From: Promethearchaeota archaeon
GTDB lineage: Archaea > Asgardarchaeota > Heimdallarchaeia > Hodarchaeales > Hodarchaeaceae
Assembly (NCBI GenBank): GCA_048938105.1
Contig: JBHLMN010000005.1
Location: forward strand, 1 to 64,000
Direction of reading: 5' to 3'
DNA: 64,000 nucleotides
Made by a program: the position numbers and the translations under genes. Of this stretch, positions 3,788 to 62,141 are shown one piece after another (position 1 is the stretch's first letter; the number at the start of each line of letters is the position of its first letter). Below the pieces are notes generated by a model. The model was not told the DNA's origin and did not search any database. It saw nothing but the letters and a program-made list of their open reading frames with translations.

Positions 3788-4738
3788 TTGCAATTTCTTT
3801 CCGAAAGACGCGTTCCTATCGCTATTGTTGGATTAGAAAACGCAGGGAAGACCACACTTAGTGTTCGGCTCCAAACTGGGAAATATCATCAAACACTTCC
3901 AACTGCAGGACTAGATGTTGAAGTAGTTGATGTAAAGGGAACTCTTTTCCAACTTTTTGATCTAGGTGGTCATCAACACTTTAGAGAATTATTTTGGAGA
4001 AATTATGTGCAGCTTTCACAGGGTATAATCTTTGTTATCGATTCAAGTGATATCGATAGATTAGATGAAGTAGTGGATTGGCTGTGGAAATGCTTAGAAT
4101 GGAATAAGAATGCTCCACTGTTAATATTAGCAAATAAATCGGATTTAAACCATATTGAATTTAAACATTTAATTAGGAAAATTAGATTAGCTCAGCTTCC
4201 CATTCAGAATCCACAGCGATCTTTTCGTATCTTCGAGGTTTCAATGAAAACAGGAACAAATTTAGAGGAAGCTCTTTCTTGGTTTTCACAGAAGACCTCT
4301 AATACAATTGAAGGTAGGCTGATAAAATTACTGGGTCTTTATATTTATCTGCCTACTGGGATTCCTATTGCTTCATACCTATTTACTAAAGAACCTTCGC
4401 AAAATTTAGATGTAGATATGATTCCTGGATTTTTAAATGCTATTGACCAATTTACAAGCGGTTTTATGGGGCCTAGTGAGGGTTTGCAATCATTAAACAC
4501 ACAAAATCATAGTATCTTAATGGTTAAACGTGAAGGAGTTTTATGTGCTTTAATAACAGCCAAAGATTCCGATCCTGGAGTTACACGGGTTATTGCAGAA
4601 TCCATTCTAACCTACTTAGAAACTTCTTTTGCTGAAAAGCTCTCCTTGTTTCGAAAGGATGGAAAAATTCGTTTTCCAAGGAATTTTATCCTTGATTATT
4701 TAGAAAGAGAATTTTCTAAAAATATTATCATTAATTAA
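3788..4738 (+). CDS. Arf/Sar1-like small GTPase fused to a C-terminal longin/roadblock-like domain
   Basis: G1 GLENAGKT, G2 TLPTAG, G3 FDLGGH, WRNY, G4 NKSD, G5 SMK; C-terminal ~135 aa with a beta-beta-alpha-beta-beta-beta-alpha pattern. Confidence 0.85.
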   Translation: MQFLSERRVPIAIVGLENAGKTTLSVRLQTGKYHQTLPTAGLDVEVVDVKGTLFQLFDLGGHQHFRELFWRNYVQLSQGIIFVIDSSDIDRLDEVVDWLWKCLEWNKNAPLLILANKSDLNHIEFKHLIRKIRLAQLPIQNPQRSFRIFEVSMKTGTNLEEALSWFSQKTSNTIEGRLIKLLGLYIYLPTGIPIASYLFTKEPSQNLDVDMIPGFLNAIDQFTSGFMGPSEGLQSLNTQNHSILMVKREGVLCALITAKDSDPGVTRVIAESILTYLETSFAEKLSLFRKDGKIRFPRNFILDYLEREFSKNIIIN

Positions 4739-6982: not shown

Positions 6983-7540
6983 TTATTGATTCCTTAATTC
7001 TTTACGTTTCTCGGTTATATGATCAATGATTTTTGTGGCAAGATTAAAAAATCCAGTTTCGACATTAGTTCCATCAAGAGCTGAAGTTGTGAAATAAGTT
7101 GCCCCTAATTTTAGCGCCATTGTTTCTGCCTCCTCTTGATCTACACTAATTTGATCACGCAAATCACATTTATTTCCAAATAACATTAAAGGTACAATTC
7201 CTACCTTTTGTGTGAAATCTAATTGCCATTTTTCTAATTGTTGTAATGTAGAAGGTCGTGTGAGGTCGAAAACTAGAATTCCTCCTCGGGCATGGAGATA
7301 ATATCGGGCGCGGATCGTTCGGAATGAATCCTGGCCTGAAAGGTCCCAAAGTTGTAGTGTAATATTGATATTCTTCTCTCTATCAAGACAAATCTTCTTT
7401 ATCAAAAAATTAGAGCCTATAGTTGTGATATAATCGTGAGTGAAAGTGTGTTGAACGTATCGGCGGATGAGGGAGGTTTTTCCTACGGAACCTTGCCCTA
7501 AAAGTACGATTTTGGCGCTGTAGTTAACCATTCTTTTCAC
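6983..7540 (-). CDS. Rab-like small GTPase
   Basis: GQGSVGKTS, YITTIG, WDLSGQ, RYY, NKCD, SAL motifs; no C-terminal cysteines. Confidence 0.92.
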   Translation of the reverse strand: MKRMVNYSAKIVLLGQGSVGKTSLIRRYVQHTFTHDYITTIGSNFLIKKICLDREKNINITLQLWDLSGQDSFRTIRARYYLHARGGILVFDLTRPSTLQQLEKWQLDFTQKVGIVPLMLFGNKCDLRDQISVDQEEAETMALKLGATYFTTSALDGTNVETGFFNLATKIIDHITEKRKELRNQ

Positions 7541-36870: not shown

Positions 36871-37290
36871 GTGATAAATATGTCAACTGAAAGAGTAAAA
36901 TATGAAATCAGTCCGATTGGGCCTCGACTCATTGCCCTTATTATCGACCTAATTATTGTGGCGATGTTGACGGTGTTTTGCCAATGGGGCGTCGAGCTGG
37001 AATGGAATATGTTTTGGAAACCAATACTATTCCCGGATATCGAATTTGTTGAAATATATTGGCTAATGCTGTTATTAATGTTGATATTCAGTATCCTCGT
37101 TTATTTCATATTGGTTCCTAGCTTTACAAATGGCCAAACAATTGGAAAAATGATAATGGGTCTCTATGTAGTCTATAATGACAATTCAAGTACCAAAAGG
37201 AAATTTGTGACACATATTAAGCGATTGTTCTTCATGCGAGGAGGAACAAAAGTCGTCAAGGTTTCTGGTGAACGGCCAGAGGGTCTTTAA
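36871..37290 (+). CDS. RDD family membrane protein
   Basis: GPRLIALIIDLII and GQTIGKMIMGLYVV RDD motifs. Confidence 0.85.
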   Translation: MINMSTERVKYEISPIGPRLIALIIDLIIVAMLTVFCQWGVELEWNMFWKPILFPDIEFVEIYWLMLLLMLIFSILVYFILVPSFTNGQTIGKMIMGLYVVYNDNSSTKRKFVTHIKRLFFMRGGTKVVKVSGERPEGL

Positions 37291-38100: not shown

Positions 38101-40638
38101 TTAGACCACTCGCTCCTTTGTTGCTTCTGCGAGATTCAGATTCAAAGCTCTTCTTAAGGGGAAGAATTGGGCCACTAAAACACCTATAAAAGTAAGTCCA
38201 AATGATATTAGAATTGTTTCATTACTCATAAATAGTTTTACACGGAAGAATTCTAGATCCAAAATGATTCTCATGAAGAACCATAACATGAGCCAGCCCA
38301 GGATTAACCCTAAAATTGTTCCAATGATGGTGATAATAAAATTCTCAACAGTAACATTTCGAACAAGGCGTCTGCTTGGTGTCCCAATAGTTAATAGAGT
38401 TGCAATCTCTCGTTCTTGTTCTTGTAAATTGATGTAAATGGTGTTATATACAATTGAACATGAAAGAACAACCGCAAATACTGCAACAATGTAGATGATG
38501 AAGTAAATCAAATTAAGAAGATTTAAGAAATCACTACTCTGCTCTTCCTTAGTATAGATATTTCTAATGTTGTAACTAAATTTTTGATAGATTTCCTTGC
38601 GTATTGAATCCAAATGATCTAGAGTGGGATTATCCACTTTCACTAGAATCGCATTTGCAGGTTGGCCTGGGAATTTACTTACACTGACCAACTTATTCAG
38701 TTCCATATAGGCAACTAGCCCATTAAACTCATCGACAAGTCCTGTAATACGGAACGAAAAATTGACCATATTAAAATGGGCTCTTAATGGAGCTGTACTT
38801 GTGATATTTGTCAAAACAGGTAATTCTAGGTTTACAGTATCATTTTCCCATACTTTTAATTTTTGAGCTACGGGAACACTTAGTACAATACCTGTTGGAT
38901 CCCACCCACCAGCTACATATTCAAATTTATGACCTTTATACCCATTTGAATTATTCACCCCAATTAATTGTACTTGTTTACTCTTATCAGATTTGCTAGA
39001 TGTTACTGTTGCTCCTGAAATGAGATGGTACGTCACATTTACTACACCATCAATTGAGTCATTAATTCCCATAGCAATTTGGGAGGCATTAACTGGAATT
39101 TCTGAATAATCAACGCGTAAATCCCAATCTTCTGCGACATCATACTGATAAACTAGAGAATAAGTCATTGATTCCATCATTCCAAAAACCATACTAATTA
39201 ACGATACCGACACAACAACTGCGAATACAGAGGAGAAGGTACGTCGCTTGCTACGAAAGAAGTTCCTAAGAGGGATTTTGTATCCAGTGACTCTCAGGTG
39301 TATTCGGAGCTTATTCAATATTCTTTCAAATAGTGGTACACGTCCAGTCGTAATATGGAGAGATGGATCAAAACGAAGACTTTCTGCTGGAAGAGGTTGA
39401 ATAGATCCCTTAATGGGCAGATATCCTCCAATAAATCCTGTAAGAAGACCTAACAAAACTCCTACTATAATGATAGGCCATTCGATAGTTACTTTTGGAG
39501 TAAATGGTATTGTTAACATATGAGTATAAAGCGGGCCAAACCATTGCAGAAATAACAATCCTAGGATTGTTCCTAAAATGGTTCCGATGATAGCTACCAC
39601 CATAGCAATACCTAGATATTGTAGGATAATCGTTCTTCTCGAGTAACCAAGGGCTTGAGCTACTCCAATATCTTTTCTTTCTGCAACAACCATCCTCCCT
39701 AAAAGCACGTATAATCCTCCCATTGCCATCGCTAGAATGATTGCTGGCAATACAAATCCAAATTCGCGCGCCTCGTCAATATCTAATTTCAATACATAAT
39801 ATGCTGCTTGTTTATCTCTATCAATGGGATCACTTAACTTTAAATCATGTGTTTCTTCTAGAAATTTCTTTAGATCATCTGCTATTGCTTCTCGTTGTCG
39901 AGGAAAGAGGTCAGGTTTTAACAACACAGAGATTTCATTCACTTTTCCTGGAACACCTAATAACCGTTGTGCTGTCCTTAGAGGTAAGTATATGACGCCA
40001 AAACGTCGTGGACTTGGCATAATGTCTGCATAGGATCCCATATTTATCAAATACTCTGGTGTTCCAAGTGATCCTAGAACTTCAAACGGAGTGTTATCAT
40101 CTCCAACAGCAATATACTCGTGTTGCTTTAACTTCCAATATGTCGCCAAGTGAGTTTCAACAATGCAAACGTTTCTGTATTGACTTATTTCTGAAAATGG
40201 CTCTCCATCTAGAATTTTAAAGCCATTTACTTTAGGTTGAGGTCGATAATCTCCATTTTCGTCAACAGTACTATATGCAACAATTCGACCATTTTGACGA
40301 GTACCTCGGATCTCAAATATTGTATCATCAATAATTCTTAATTCGTAACTGACTACTTTAGATTCCTCCAAGTCCATAAACTCATCCATGTATTTTGTTA
40401 GATTGTTAGTATCAATCCAAGCATCCTCACCCGACCCTCCTGGATTTGCTGTTAGTATTGTGAAACTTGCCATATTATAATCCGTGAATGCTTGGTTATA
40501 TGTCCGATTCATGAGTATAAAAGCAGTGACCATTCCATTGAATGAAGTGATTCCTATGGCAATTACTAATGCAATAGTAAAGAAACGAATTTTATGTGCT
40601 TTTAAAGCACGATAGATATTTTTTGCCGTTTTAGCCAA
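38101..40638 (-). CDS. FtsX/MacB-like ABC permease (two repeats)
   Basis: ERKDIGVAQALG and EQEREIATLLTIG motifs, two large extracytoplasmic domains. Confidence 0.9.
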   Translation of the reverse strand: MAKTAKNIYRALKAHKIRFFTIALVIAIGITSFNGMVTAFILMNRTYNQAFTDYNMASFTILTANPGGSGEDAWIDTNNLTKYMDEFMDLEESKVVSYELRIIDDTIFEIRGTRQNGRIVAYSTVDENGDYRPQPKVNGFKILDGEPFSEISQYRNVCIVETHLATYWKLKQHEYIAVGDDNTPFEVLGSLGTPEYLINMGSYADIMPSPRRFGVIYLPLRTAQRLLGVPGKVNEISVLLKPDLFPRQREAIADDLKKFLEETHDLKLSDPIDRDKQAAYYVLKLDIDEAREFGFVLPAIILAMAMGGLYVLLGRMVVAERKDIGVAQALGYSRRTIILQYLGIAMVVAIIGTILGTILGLLFLQWFGPLYTHMLTIPFTPKVTIEWPIIIVGVLLGLLTGFIGGYLPIKGSIQPLPAESLRFDPSLHITTGRVPLFERILNKLRIHLRVTGYKIPLRNFFRSKRRTFSSVFAVVVSVSLISMVFGMMESMTYSLVYQYDVAEDWDLRVDYSEIPVNASQIAMGINDSIDGVVNVTYHLISGATVTSSKSDKSKQVQLIGVNNSNGYKGHKFEYVAGGWDPTGIVLSVPVAQKLKVWENDTVNLELPVLTNITSTAPLRAHFNMVNFSFRITGLVDEFNGLVAYMELNKLVSVSKFPGQPANAILVKVDNPTLDHLDSIRKEIYQKFSYNIRNIYTKEEQSSDFLNLLNLIYFIIYIVAVFAVVLSCSIVYNTIYINLQEQEREIATLLTIGTPSRRLVRNVTVENFIITIIGTILGLILGWLMLWFFMRIILDLEFFRVKLFMSNETILISFGLTFIGVLVAQFFPLRRALNLNLAEATKERVV

Positions 40639-40665: not shown

Positions 40666-42372
40666 TTACCAAGAGATATTTTCTGCAGGAGTGGGAGTCT
40701 GGGTTTCTATAGAATCTATTTCACCAGAGCGTAATCTAATGACTTTATTCCCAATTAATGAGATTTTCTGATTATGAGTGACGAGTATAACTAAGATATT
40801 TGGTCTCTCTTTAATAATTCCTTGAATAACAGCTAATACTTTTTTTCCTTCTTTAACTGAAAGTTCTCCTGTTGGTTCATCACATAGGAGTATATCTGGT
40901 TCCTTAGCAAAGGCACGAGCAGCAGCAACTTGTTGCTGTTCACCTCCAGAGAGTTGAGACGGAAACGAGAAACGTTTCTCCCATAATCCAACTTTCTTGA
41001 TATATTCCTCTGTCTTAGCTAGTACTTCACTCCTGGATATCTTCCTTCTAGAGAGATCTACTGCATATTCAATGTTTTCCATGGCGTTTAAGACTGGTAT
41101 CAGATTAAAGAATTGAAAGATGAATCCACACTTTTCACGACGGTATTTGGTAAGCTTACCTTTACTCAATTTTGTAACTTCAATATCACCTACCTTAATT
41201 GTCCCCTCACACTTATCAATCCCTCCAATGACGTTTAAAAGAGTTGTTTTACCTGAACCAGATGGACCTAGGACTACGACGAGTTGACCACTTGCTAAAT
41301 CTAATGACAGATTCTTTAATGCATATATTTGTTGATTTCCCATCTTGTAAATCCTGTTAACATTTCTTAATCTGACAAATCCATTAACATGATCTATATC
41401 TCGATATTGAGTAGTCACTTGGGAAGATGAGTAATCACTGGTAACCTCTTTTTGCTCAGCTATTTCCTTCATCTTTTTTAAAAGAGGCGAAGACAATGTT
41501 GTTATGAGATCTTGACCTGGATTCATTACTGTGGAAAGGAGAATCTCATTTCGTACATAAACATCATATACTTTATCTAAAGAAGCAATTGATTGCATGA
41601 TTTCTAGAGCTTCATCATTATCAATGAATGATTTCATTTTAAAGGCGTTTGAATTGGATCCAATGAGTCTGGCGAAAGTTTGGAAGGGCTTTTCATCTTG
41701 AATAGCTGTGAAAAACTGTCGCATGGATGATTTGTGACCAATTTCACAGAATTTATTTAGGGGTTTTTTTAGATGATTTGGTAAAGGGAAAAAAGATAAG
41801 ACTCCAAGATTGTCAACTTTTTCAATGATTTTCTCAAGGGATAAATAATCATCTTTTACAACAAAGAACATCCTTGAAGTTATTTTCTCAAGGCTAACTT
41901 GAAAATCATGAGCAAAACTAGCTAAGAGAACGAGAGCAGATTGAATTCCTTCAGCAGCTTTAGGGAGTAGGAACAATGATTGAGAAGGGAAATTAATGAC
42001 TCTGCAAAAGCAATCTAGCTGTGGAAATTCGGCATCATGTATTTTACCCTCTAAGTATTCTTCCATTAATTTCAATACAATTTTCATGATAGGAAGAGCT
42101 CGTTTTGCACTCACATCGATAGGTACAAGTACAATGGCCATAAGTGAAGGAAATTCAGGGTTCTGAGATGCTAGAAATACCATTTTATGATTATCAAATT
42201 TAATGAAGCTAATATGTTCACCTTTCAAAATCTTTTGGGAAAAAAGTGTCAATACATTAGCAAGGGTACCAGATATCTCTGGGCGTTTTGTTAGCTTTCC
42301 CACTCCAGAGCTGAAAATAACTTCATCACGATTGACAATTAAAAGATCAGGAGGAGGATATCTATAGCTCAT
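40666..42372 (-). CDS. LolD/MacB-type ABC ATPase with a ~330-aa N-terminal longin/DENN-like extension
   Basis: C-terminal NBD intact ([25 protein letters not shown]); N-terminal fold call is from secondary-structure pattern only. Confidence 0.85.
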
Positions 42373-42392: not shown

Positions 42393-44387
42393 CTAAGAGA
42401 ATTTTCTTTTTTTTCTATTAATTACAAAGCATAATGAAATCAAAGACAATAAAGCAGGTATAATTTCAAATGATGGAATCTCACCGCCACCAGGAATAAT
42501 TGATTTTATATTGGTCATTCGACCTGTATTTATCAGAGCAAAGTATGGGACATAACTTTCATAGGTCGCTTCCCAACTATTAGATACTTCATTGTAAACG
42601 GTAGTAATATTCAACCACTGACTAGACTGATTATCCCAACGCTTCCATTGATACACAGGAAATTCACTTGCGTTGGAAGAGAGCATTAACGTAAGAGTAA
42701 TGAAAATGATTTCATCAGATTTTTCACAATTGAACTCTATTGCATATACCGCATTTTCAGGTAATGAATCTTTTGATATAACAGAAAGATTAAAGAATTG
42801 ATCAATCGATGAAGTTAATGTTAAAATGAACCAAAGGTCATTTGACGCATTTTTGAACCTAATTGTCCGTGGAGAATTAGCTTTTATCTCCCAATTCCAA
42901 TCAAATGCACTAATATAAATTGAAAACGAAATTCTTGTAGAAGCAATATTCTGAGCTTCATCAGTTGCATAAATAAGTAATATATAACTTCCATTCTCAA
43001 GATTTGAATATCTTATTGTATGGTTTTGCAAAGTCTCGATGAAAATACTTTTGATGTTCATATTCAGTAATCTATACGTCAGATTTATGTCCTCAGAAGA
43101 AGTTATTATTATCTCAACATCTCCTTTAATAACTGAGTTGTTTACAAAATCATAGGTTATCTCAGGAGGACTATTATCAACAATCCATATATAGCGAGCA
43201 TTTACCCATAATCCTGAAATTGGACTCTTTACAGAGACATTTAGGATGTGGGATATTTCCAATTCTGGATTCGGAACTGGAATGTACGTATTTTCATCAA
43301 CTGATTCAAAATTTCCTCCATCCCATTGATAAACTATTGTTCCATTTCCTGAAGAGATGAATAGCTGAATCTCTGTTGTCCCTTTAATTTTTGAATTGTT
43401 TCGTGGAGTAAGCAATGAAATCCCTGGCAATGTATTATCAGTAATATATACTAAATGATAGTAGTCGTGAAATCCAACATTATCAAATGCTATAATGAAT
43501 ATTTCATGGGAACCATCTTCCCCAGGTAAGATTACGTTGAAAAAATTCGAAGAAGTCGTTAAATTATTGTCATCATCCCAATGATAGTAAATTACATCAG
43601 TACCATAGGGAGAGGTGAATTCCAGAGAGATTATTGTATTTGAAGCTAATCTTGAATTATTAATGTGAGAAGCTTGCATGATATAGGGGCCTTTGTAATC
43701 TGGGGGTGGTTGGGCAATTTCTGCTTTTGTCAAATTGAACCATATAATATTGGGTCCTAAATCTTCTTTCAAACAGAGGAGTAACCCACTGTCAGCAGCA
43801 TACCAGAATGTTAATATTCCTGCAGCTATTTTCCATGCTTTAAATTCCTGATCGACCTGGGCCATTTTTATTGTGTCAGCAAGAACAGTTACAGTATAAG
43901 TATCAACTGTGAATTGATACTTATCAAAAAAGCCAGTTGTATCAATCCAAAAATCTAGTGAATGACTCGGGTTACCGAATATAATCTCCCAGTAATTGGT
44001 TGCTTCATATCCATGGTTAGTACTTGTTCGATTCACAATAGAATCAAACGATGGTTTATCTAAAGTAGGGATTGAGTAATCAAAATGGATAAACCAATGG
44101 GTTCTATTCAACGATAAAACTGTTGCATTAAAAGAGTCCTGAAATGCTGTTGTTCCTTGTTCATATTCGATATAACTACTTATTGTAAGATTTGTGTTTG
44201 GGAGAATAGTTTTATTAAGATCAAATGTCTGTAGATGTTTAAGAGAAGGATTTTGTAAAGGATAATCATCATTTATATTTGTTGTTGGCATTTGGAGGGT
44301 AGATTCAGATATAATGTTGCTGTTTGGTAAATTCAACATAAAAAATAGCAATATAGGAACGAAATAAGTCTGGTAATGCTTTCTCAT
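42393..44387 (-). CDS. Ig-like repeat surface glycoprotein with a PGF-CTERM-like sorting signal
   Basis: Signal peptide, many NxS/T sequons, DNTLP/DNSPP and AFDNVG/ATDEAQN Ig-like motifs, C-terminus EIPSF + TM + RKKRK. Confidence 0.82.
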   Translation of the reverse strand: MRKHYQTYFVPILLFFMLNLPNSNIISESTLQMPTTNINDDYPLQNPSLKHLQTFDLNKTILPNTNLTISSYIEYEQGTTAFQDSFNATVLSLNRTHWFIHFDYSIPTLDKPSFDSIVNRTSTNHGYEATNYWEIIFGNPSHSLDFWIDTTGFFDKYQFTVDTYTVTVLADTIKMAQVDQEFKAWKIAAGILTFWYAADSGLLLCLKEDLGPNIIWFNLTKAEIAQPPPDYKGPYIMQASHINNSRLASNTIISLEFTSPYGTDVIYYHWDDDNNLTTSSNFFNVILPGEDGSHEIFIIAFDNVGFHDYYHLVYITDNTLPGISLLTPRNNSKIKGTTEIQLFISSGNGTIVYQWDGGNFESVDENTYIPVPNPELEISHILNVSVKSPISGLWVNARYIWIVDNSPPEITYDFVNNSVIKGDVEIIITSSEDINLTYRLLNMNIKSIFIETLQNHTIRYSNLENGSYILLIYATDEAQNIASTRISFSIYISAFDWNWEIKANSPRTIRFKNASNDLWFILTLTSSIDQFFNLSVISKDSLPENAVYAIEFNCEKSDEIIFITLTLMLSSNASEFPVYQWKRWDNQSSQWLNITTVYNEVSNSWEATYESYVPYFALINTGRMTNIKSIIPGGGEIPSFEIIPALLSLISLCFVINRKKRKFS

Positions 44388-61292: not shown

Positions 61293-62141
61293 ATGGACAT
61301 AAGACATCTATGGCGAGGAAAATCTCGCGGAGTAACACCAGTTGTTGCCACAGTTCTTTTGATCGGTTTGGTGGCGATTGCAGGCATTGCAATCGCTTTG
61401 GTGATATTTGGGACGATAAACTCACCTCCACCGATTGAAGTAAGAATTCTCTCTATTTCTGATTTTGAGACAACAGACACCAATACCTTAATCGACCAGT
61501 TTTCTGTGACCCTTCATAACGTAGAACGTACCAACCTACGTTTAGAAGTTGATTCTTTTACATTGGAGTATAAGAATGGTACAATGATACCTGGATGGGG
61601 TATGGATCCTAAACAATCCGAAATATACCTATCTGCTAGAACAATAGAAACAATTCCTCTGATATGTGATCCAATCGCGGGTATTGAATTACCTCCAGAC
61701 CAAGACGCAATTTATATCGAAGTCACAGTTTTCCCTAAAGATAGTACCAGTCAGCGATCTGCAAGAACATTTCGTTCGAATTTACTTCTAATTGGGAGTA
61801 CACATGGTCCCATATTCTTGGAATACCAAGCTACAACTCTGAATCTGGTTGATACTGGATTGAAAATTAATTTTATAACAATCAATAATGGAAGCAAAGA
61901 TCAAAGTTTCAAACTTGAGCTCTATACCAATTCTCCTGAAAACATTACTTTTACAATAGGTAATATTAACCGTACTACGGTATTATTTTCGATCGCGGGT
62001 TACAACACCACAACTATAAACGTTACTGTCTTCCCGACTGATCGTGTTACTGTTGGTGACTCATATATTGTTGTAGCTTTCCTCTGGAGGCAATCTGATC
62101 TGCAGTTAGTTTCCTCTGTGAGTTTTGTTTTGACTTACTAA
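61293..62141 (+). CDS. Archaeal type IV pilin-like protein (class III signal peptide)
   Basis: KSRG/VTPVVATVLLIGLVAIAGIAIALVIFG prepilin cleavage motif. Confidence 0.85.
   Translation: MDIRHLWRGKSRGVTPVVATVLLIGLVAIAGIAIALVIFGTINSPPPIEVRILSISDFETTDTNTLIDQFSVTLHNVERTNLRLEVDSFTLEYKNGTMIPGWGMDPKQSEIYLSARTIETIPLICDPIAGIELPPDQDAIYIEVTVFPKDSTSQRSARTFRSNLLLIGSTHGPIFLEYQATTLNLVDTGLKINFITINNGSKDQSFKLELYTNSPENITFTIGNINRTTVLFSIAGYNTTTINVTVFPTDRVTVGDSYIVVAFLWRQSDLQLVSSVSFVLTY

Follow-up and report, generated by a model that had tools for sequence, protein, structure and literature searches.

Among the type VII ATP-binding cassette (ABC) systems, a group that includes MacB, LolCDE, BceAB, and FtsEX, the FtsEX systems work on extracytoplasmic partners. 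Few known archaea are as closely related to eukaryotes as the Hodarchaeales, whose longin and roadblock proteins have been interpreted as precursors of the regulators of eukaryotic trafficking. Here, we analyze a gene in which a longin domain and an ABC ATPase share one chain. It lies in a 64,000-nucleotide stretch of a Hodarchaeales genome, hereafter the window (Promethearchaeota archaeon, assembly GCA_048938105.1, contig JBHLMN010000005.1, positions 1 to 64,000), and occupies positions 40666–42372 of the minus strand, encoding the 568-residue protein P0001 in a single uninterrupted frame. From the N terminus, the protein comprises a longin/roadblock domain (residues 9–107; 42052–42348), a DHH-like domain with an α/β and a helical part (residues 112–305; 41458–42039), a variable linker (residues 306–339; 41356–41457) that is length-polymorphic among homologs (alignment columns 345–395), and a LolD/MacB-type nucleotide-binding domain (NBD; residues 340–568; 40669–41355), all on the minus strand. 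On balance, we lean toward a reading in which a type VII ABC system uses two ATPase subunits, one of them this fused protein, which bears a longin plus inactive DHH-like docking or regulatory module captured once from a soluble protein.

Pfam recognizes the ABC NBD at residues 352–501 (PF00005, 7.7e-29), and the domain retains Walker A, the Q-loop, the LSGGEQQ signature, the Walker B DEPT, and the H-loop, so the original prediction of an intact LolD-type NBD behind an N-terminal module holds. Residues 1–335 gave no Pfam match, permissive thresholds included. The fusion itself is also genuine. A search of a 5.8-billion-protein collection returned ∼19 proteins of 563–605 residues with the same architecture and 58–80% identity, drawn from four assembly sources (JGI, ENA, NCBI, and Logan), and those with names are labeled as Hodarchaeota, Hodarchaeales, or “Promethearchaeota” ABC ATP-binding proteins. 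Because the architecture recurs in these assemblies, and the same operon on two independent contigs, an assembly artifact is for all practical purposes ruled out. An apparent joining of two separate genes, through mis-assembly or an overlooked gene boundary, might be suspected from one homolog, P0013 (327 residues), which is the module alone; however, in the tree this homolog falls among the fused proteins, its simplest explanation being truncation of such a protein, and with the frame continuous both here and in ∼19 independent assemblies we give this explanation next to no weight.

A maximum-likelihood tree of 37 N-terminal modules groups all 19 ABC-fused modules into one clade (100/99), which is nested in a soluble family with the non-ABC protein P0021 as its sister (99/97). 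One capture event therefore suffices, and the fusion has a single origin. Across 200 genomes sampled from the phylum, the module is confined to the window's genus, where the soluble form occurs in 10 of 10 genomes and the ABC-fused form in 3 of 10. A longin and DHH-like module on this known kind of transporter makes a new combination of domains, confined to a single Asgard genus; the literature searched holds no description of a longin-DHH or longin-ABC fusion in Asgard archaea.

An AlphaFold2 model of residues 1–312 (22-row alignment; predicted local distance difference test [pLDDT] 83.9, predicted TM-score [pTM] 0.84) contains every element that had been read from the sequence: longin-order elements over residues ∼8–110, the AKRAL..EEYL helix included, an alternating β/α block, and a helical block. 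The longin part follows the order ββ-α-βββ-α, with strands 9–14 and 17–21, helix 31–48, strands 56–59, 62–68, and 77–84, and helix 93–107. It is an α-β-α sandwich with a five-stranded antiparallel sheet, and its Z scores against solved longin and roadblock members are well above background. The α/β block has strands at residues 133–137 (LFLLP), 168–171 (MFFV), and 191–193 (VLS), and the helical block spans residues 229–311. The earlier assignment of a longin followed by a cDENN-like region thus stands in its first half: the AlphaFold2 model bears out the longin, whereas the second domain, in the searches run, matches a DHH fold rather than a DENN fold and lacks DENN Pfam signal. The profile of the module gave a chance match only against PDB sequences (E 0.34). 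Longins of the GTPase-activating protein (GAP) type, as in FLCN, SMCR8, and NPRL2, have a GP motif before β2 and an arginine finger (PMC12290439). Neither the GP motif nor a conserved Arg was found here, the β1-β2 loop being N-[RHQK]-[DN]-x in all aligned members.

Remodeled alone from a 26-row alignment that includes members at 17–25% identity, residues 108–312 gave a model with pLDDT 92.6 and pTM 0.90 and the element order β-α-β-α-β-β. Foldseek matched this domain-only model to 8a8k_A and Pyrococcus RecJ (PfuRecJ) with a probability of 0.96, at E values of just 0.08–0.11, and a structure search with the same model also lists 8a8k_A, 7d62_B, and 6mtz_B; by structure comparison, the fold is that of a DHH domain. 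The best local match in hhalign, itself non-significant, falls on DHH motif I in all three comparisons and aligns P-[RK]-x-x-[ED]-G-[IL]-x-S of the family with D-x-D-G-x-x-S of DHH proteins. The metal ligands (DXD, D, DHH, and D) are absent from all 22–26 aligned members, in which neither a DHH triplet nor a conserved Asp was found after the strands at 168–171, 191–193, and 208–210. Because these metal-binding motifs are missing, the second domain, if of DHH ancestry, is probably a catalytically dead pseudo-enzyme, like Cdc45. The DHHA1/DHHA2 partner domain is likewise absent from the fused protein, with the NBD in its place.

The soluble relatives, of ∼600–650 residues, define a lineage-wide, unannotated Hodarchaeales family of longin, dead DHH domain, linker, and C-domain, one branch of which is joined to an ABC motor. 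Among 1.84 billion representatives scanned exhaustively with HMMER, just 21 relatives of the module emerged. Those without an ABC domain (536–675 residues) have the same N-terminal module, then a low-complexity Pro/Glu/Thr linker and a conserved ∼240-residue C-domain that ends S-E-x-C-G-x-G-F-S-R-W; all named examples are “hypothetical proteins” of Hodarchaeota or Hodarchaeales. The genome of the window (G000) encodes one such paralog, of 652 residues, with a longin, a DHH-like domain, a Pro/Glu/Thr linker, and a C-domain ending GFSRW (contig C52:425444–427402, plus strand; locus L003:8445–10403), and the two proteins are 41% identical in the module. The best hhalign match of the paralog C-domain lies on the DHHA1 core and is non-significant, and comparisons with the NBD, DHH, and N-terminal module alignments yielded nothing significant. 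For paralog P0023, an ESM Atlas structure search returned DHHA1-containing clusters over residues ∼400–510 in 6 of 10 rows, from a low-confidence Atlas model (pLDDT 0.38), and the soluble C-domain is possibly DHHA1-like. The characteristic arrangement in the DHH superfamily is a DHH-like domain with a DHHA1-like domain after it; together with the hint in the paralog, this raises our confidence in the DHH reading. A separate feature of these neighborhoods is a ∼275-residue protein encoded directly downstream of soluble paralogs in three lineages (L005, L040/L046, and L043), which in L046 and L043 has an archaeal type IV pilin N-terminal (Pilin_N) signature. A 286-residue open frame in the window (61314–62096, plus strand), 19 kb from the ABC operon, is 33% identical to it.

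The fused ATPase is encoded by the second of four closely packed minus-strand genes, separated by gaps of 20, 27, and 13 bp. The first encodes a 664-residue surface protein (42393–44387) with a signal-like N-terminal segment, a C-terminal membrane anchor, and weak Y_Y_Y and Ig-like matches only. The third encodes an 845-residue permease (38101–40638) with two FtsX and two MacB_PCD extracytoplasmic domains (PF02687, 1e-31, and PF12704, 5e-15, each in two stretches), and the fourth a plain ABC ATPase of 248 residues, P0049 (37341–38087), which provides a second NBD gene. The complete four-gene operon is repeated on two independent contigs (L047 and L048), in both with the surface protein first. 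A LolD/MacB-type NBD, an FtsX permease with MacB_PCD domains, and a second NBD gene mark this as a type VII system of the MacB/FtsEX kind. An RDD-family gene and an AhpC/thioredoxin gene lie near the operon in the window, L047, and L048. The RDD-family membrane protein gene adjoins the operon in the window (36871–37290, plus strand) and sits beside or within it on the other two contigs; it may belong to the ABC system.

The plain ATPase and the fused NBD share 47% identity, and both keep all catalytic motifs. The D-loop reads GELS in the fused NBD as against the usual GNLD in the plain ATPase, and the residue after the LSGGEQQ signature in the fused NBD is mostly Q rather than R; these sequence differences hint at a functional asymmetry of the NBD pair. 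Both NBDs also share a ∼12-residue tail, P-[TA]-P/x-A-x-E-x-x-W, that extends past the usual end of LolD-type NBDs. We considered the invariant C-terminal Trp as a tail common to the fused ATPase and the soluble paralogs and rejected it: the plain ATPase ends in PA-x-E-x-x-W as well, so this Trp is a feature of the NBD subfamily.

Structure prediction also suggests that the module forms a homodimer, with an ipSAE interface score of 0.53 compared with 0.00 for the best control, agreement in all contacts between three runs, and a partner pLDDT of at least 85. Among proteins of solved structure, 20 of 30 that are pairs of one chain attained this mark, as did 1 of 23 that are single chains. The predicted interface is formed by helix 26–49 and strand 52–62, with a symmetric 57:57 contact, such that the module would dimerize through its central helix and edge strand, the canonical roadblock interface. 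Interface residues are 59–70% identical between the fused and soluble forms, compared with 42–60% for the remainder of the longin domain. Because the arrangement is that of solved roadblock dimers, the homodimer result may in part be a memory of those structures.

In the model we favor, a type VII ABC system of the mechanotransmission kind (MacB/FtsEX/LolCDE-like), with a double-FtsX permease and a membrane-anchored surface protein, would carry on one ATPase a module copied from the N-terminal half of a soluble protein specific to Hodarchaeales, the NBD having replaced the C-terminal half. The flexibly tethered module would most likely serve for docking and regulation, not as an enzyme or a DENN-type guanine nucleotide exchange factor (GEF). 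Its longin would pair via the roadblock interface, either with another copy of itself or with the soluble paralog (41% identical), and its pseudo-DHH (RecJ/Cdc45/GAN-like) domain would, as Cdc45 does, present a surface to which proteins or ligands could bind. Acting through the linker, the module could gate or localize ATP hydrolysis and hence the mechanical cycle that the permease would pass to the cell surface, where the machine would act on the co-encoded surface protein. Given a double-FtsX permease and two distinct ATPase genes, the most economical assembly would have one fused and one plain NBD per permease, leaving the lone longin free to pair with that of another transporter or with the soluble paralog.

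Several points weigh against this model. The Pfam profile for DHH (PF01368) has no match in residues 108–312 of any of the 26 members, and hhalign comparisons with DHH alignments from 30 loci of this genome and 12 relatives gave probabilities of ≤1% and E values of 0.05–0.3, the same as reversed controls. The DHH assignment accordingly comes from the predicted fold without significant sequence or profile similarity, and the Atlas model behind the DHHA1 hint for P0023 is of low confidence. The ratio of one fused to one plain ATPase per permease is deduced from gene content, dimerization is a prediction, and the regulatory role and the partner or ligand are putative.

The original prediction had suggested that a DENN-like domain on an ABC motor could couple transporter state to Rab/Arf-like GTPases. 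As a GEF, the module would be a uDENN longin with cDENN and dDENN parts that exchanges nucleotide on such GTPases. The longin, α/β, helical order is indeed that of DENN proteins, with the longin in the place of the N-terminal uDENN lobe. Foldseek aligned the whole module with DENND10 (8p0v_M) over 355 columns (E 3.8e-3, probability 0.57, TM-score 0.20), the soluble paralog lies near Ras-family and Arf-like genes in two Hodarchaeales, and Asgard DENN and FLCN-like proteins have been reported (DENN: bioRxiv 10.1101/2020.10.19.343400). Three search outputs for the domain-only model, however, place no DENN, FLCN, SMCR8, C9orf72, or tri-longin chain among their 50 best rows. The DENN, uDENN, dDENN, and Folliculin profiles have no match at E ≤ 1 in the whole protein or at E ≤ 10 in residues 108–312 of the 26 members, and PF02141 (DENN) and PF16692 (Folliculin_C) none in this genome. 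The order of a longin, an α/β part, and helices is insufficient by itself to call DENN, the second domain here being RecJ/Cdc45-like; the N-terminal addition is probably not a DENN module, and we regard an exchange factor as improbable.

The same comparisons bear on a tri-longin domain (TLD) arrangement like that of Mon1, Ccz1, and Fuzzy, in which residues 112–215 would be a second longin-type domain and the protein a truncated relative of the TLD RabGEFs. Fuzzy is the top Foldseek match of the whole module (9rs9_A, E 4.1e-4, 180 columns), followed by MON1A/CCZ1, and an ESM Atlas shape search returned Fuz_longin_1+2 clusters (188–202 residues aligned, TM-score 0.44–0.48). We nonetheless consider this arrangement very improbable: the alignments with Fuzzy and MON1 (170–202 residues) remain below a TM-score of 0.5, with root-mean-square deviations of 5–8 Å, the β-α-β-α-β-β order of the second domain is unlike a longin meander, and neither aligner placed a TLD chain in the 50 best rows for the domain-only model. 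The dead DHH-like domain could instead be a small-molecule sensor that binds a phosphorylated ligand (nanoRNA, pAp, or a cyclic dinucleotide) and gates the ATPase in the manner of the C-terminal regulatory domains of MetN and MalK. Enzymes of this fold act on such ligands (8a8k_A, 7d62_B, and 6mtz_B), and the motif I Gly and Ser (G142 and S145) and the invariant D156 are conserved family-wide. Against this, all metal-ligating Asp and His residues are lost and the fused protein has no DHHA1 domain, the part that binds substrate; we consider a sensor unlikely.

The GTPases of the window, which had been proposed as partners, are a Ras-family protein of 185 residues (6983–7540, minus strand) and an Arf-family protein of 316 residues with a ∼145-residue C-terminal extension (3788–4738, plus strand), both identified by Pfam and encoded 33–37 kb from the fused ATPase gene. 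Between the two are genes for a KaiC-like ATPase and a lipoate ligase. The soluble paralog on C52 is preceded by genes for a gelsolin-like protein, a Ras-family GTPase, an Arf-like GTPase, and Sua5/YrdC and followed by diphthamide synthase, in an order repeated in L005, which puts it two to three genes downstream of the GTPase genes in these two Hodarchaeales. Four other soluble-paralog contexts lack this arrangement, and a Sua5/YrdC or type IV pilin-like gene recurs in them. Around the distant soluble paralogs, most of whose neighborhoods are on short contigs, the longer contigs show no conserved GTPase neighbor. Any longin platform may be linked to a GTPase, and nothing specific to this one supports such a link. 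We regard it as improbable that the Hodarchaeales-specific longin and pseudo-DHH platform recruits a small GTPase, or a soluble paralog bound to one, to a mechanotransmitting ABC machine, such that GTPase state controls remodeling of the surface protein. If true, such a platform would represent a prokaryotic precursor of the control of membrane and surface dynamics by GTPases, with a Cdc45-like scaffold instead of DENN as its basis. The genome also encodes a 449-residue folliculin-type longin protein (C52:295244–296593, minus strand; L036:619–1968; Pfam Folliculin, 1.6e-6), a candidate member of the FLCN-like longins that have been reported in Heimdallarchaeia; it has no profile relation to the module. 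A further folliculin-type longin match (PF11704, 23.5 bits; C52:42106–42354, minus strand; L037) falls within an 8857-residue open frame, a giant protein with a longin-like segment, and another lies 4.5 kb away in a 1541-residue frame.

Compared with DENN proteins (DENND1, folliculin, and C9orf72-SMCR8), the docking module proposed here shares the order of longin, α/β, and helical parts but differs in that, in the searches run, its second and third parts superpose on DHH domains rather than on solved DENN lobes, and in its lack of DENN-type Pfam signal. It likewise lacks the GP motif of the GAP-type FLCN, SMCR8, and NPRL2 longins. With Cdc45 and archaeal GAN (RecJ-Cdc45) of the DHH superfamily it has a DHH-type fold in common, and with Cdc45 probably also catalytic inactivity; it differs in having no significant sequence or profile similarity to them, an N-terminal longin, no DHHA1 domain in the fused protein, and no replication context. 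Should it prove to be a regulated docking platform, it would put the Cdc45-like pseudo-enzyme scaffold to a new use and provide a rare case in which a type VII ABC system is under N-terminal, protein-mediated control. The LolD/MacB-type NBD with all its motifs and the FtsX and MacB_PCD permease are those of MacB, LolCDE, FtsEX, and BceAB, and the surface protein co-encoded in the operon recalls the extracytoplasmic partners of FtsEX. In contrast to these systems, the permease is a fused double FtsX with two distinct ATPase genes, and one ATPase bears a 310-residue N-terminal longin and DHH-like module, unreported for them in the literature searched. The longin here differs from the roadblock and longin platforms MglB, LAMTOR, LD1 of Mon1-Ccz1, and the Asgard roadblocks in its covalent attachment to a DHH-like domain and an ABC NBD.
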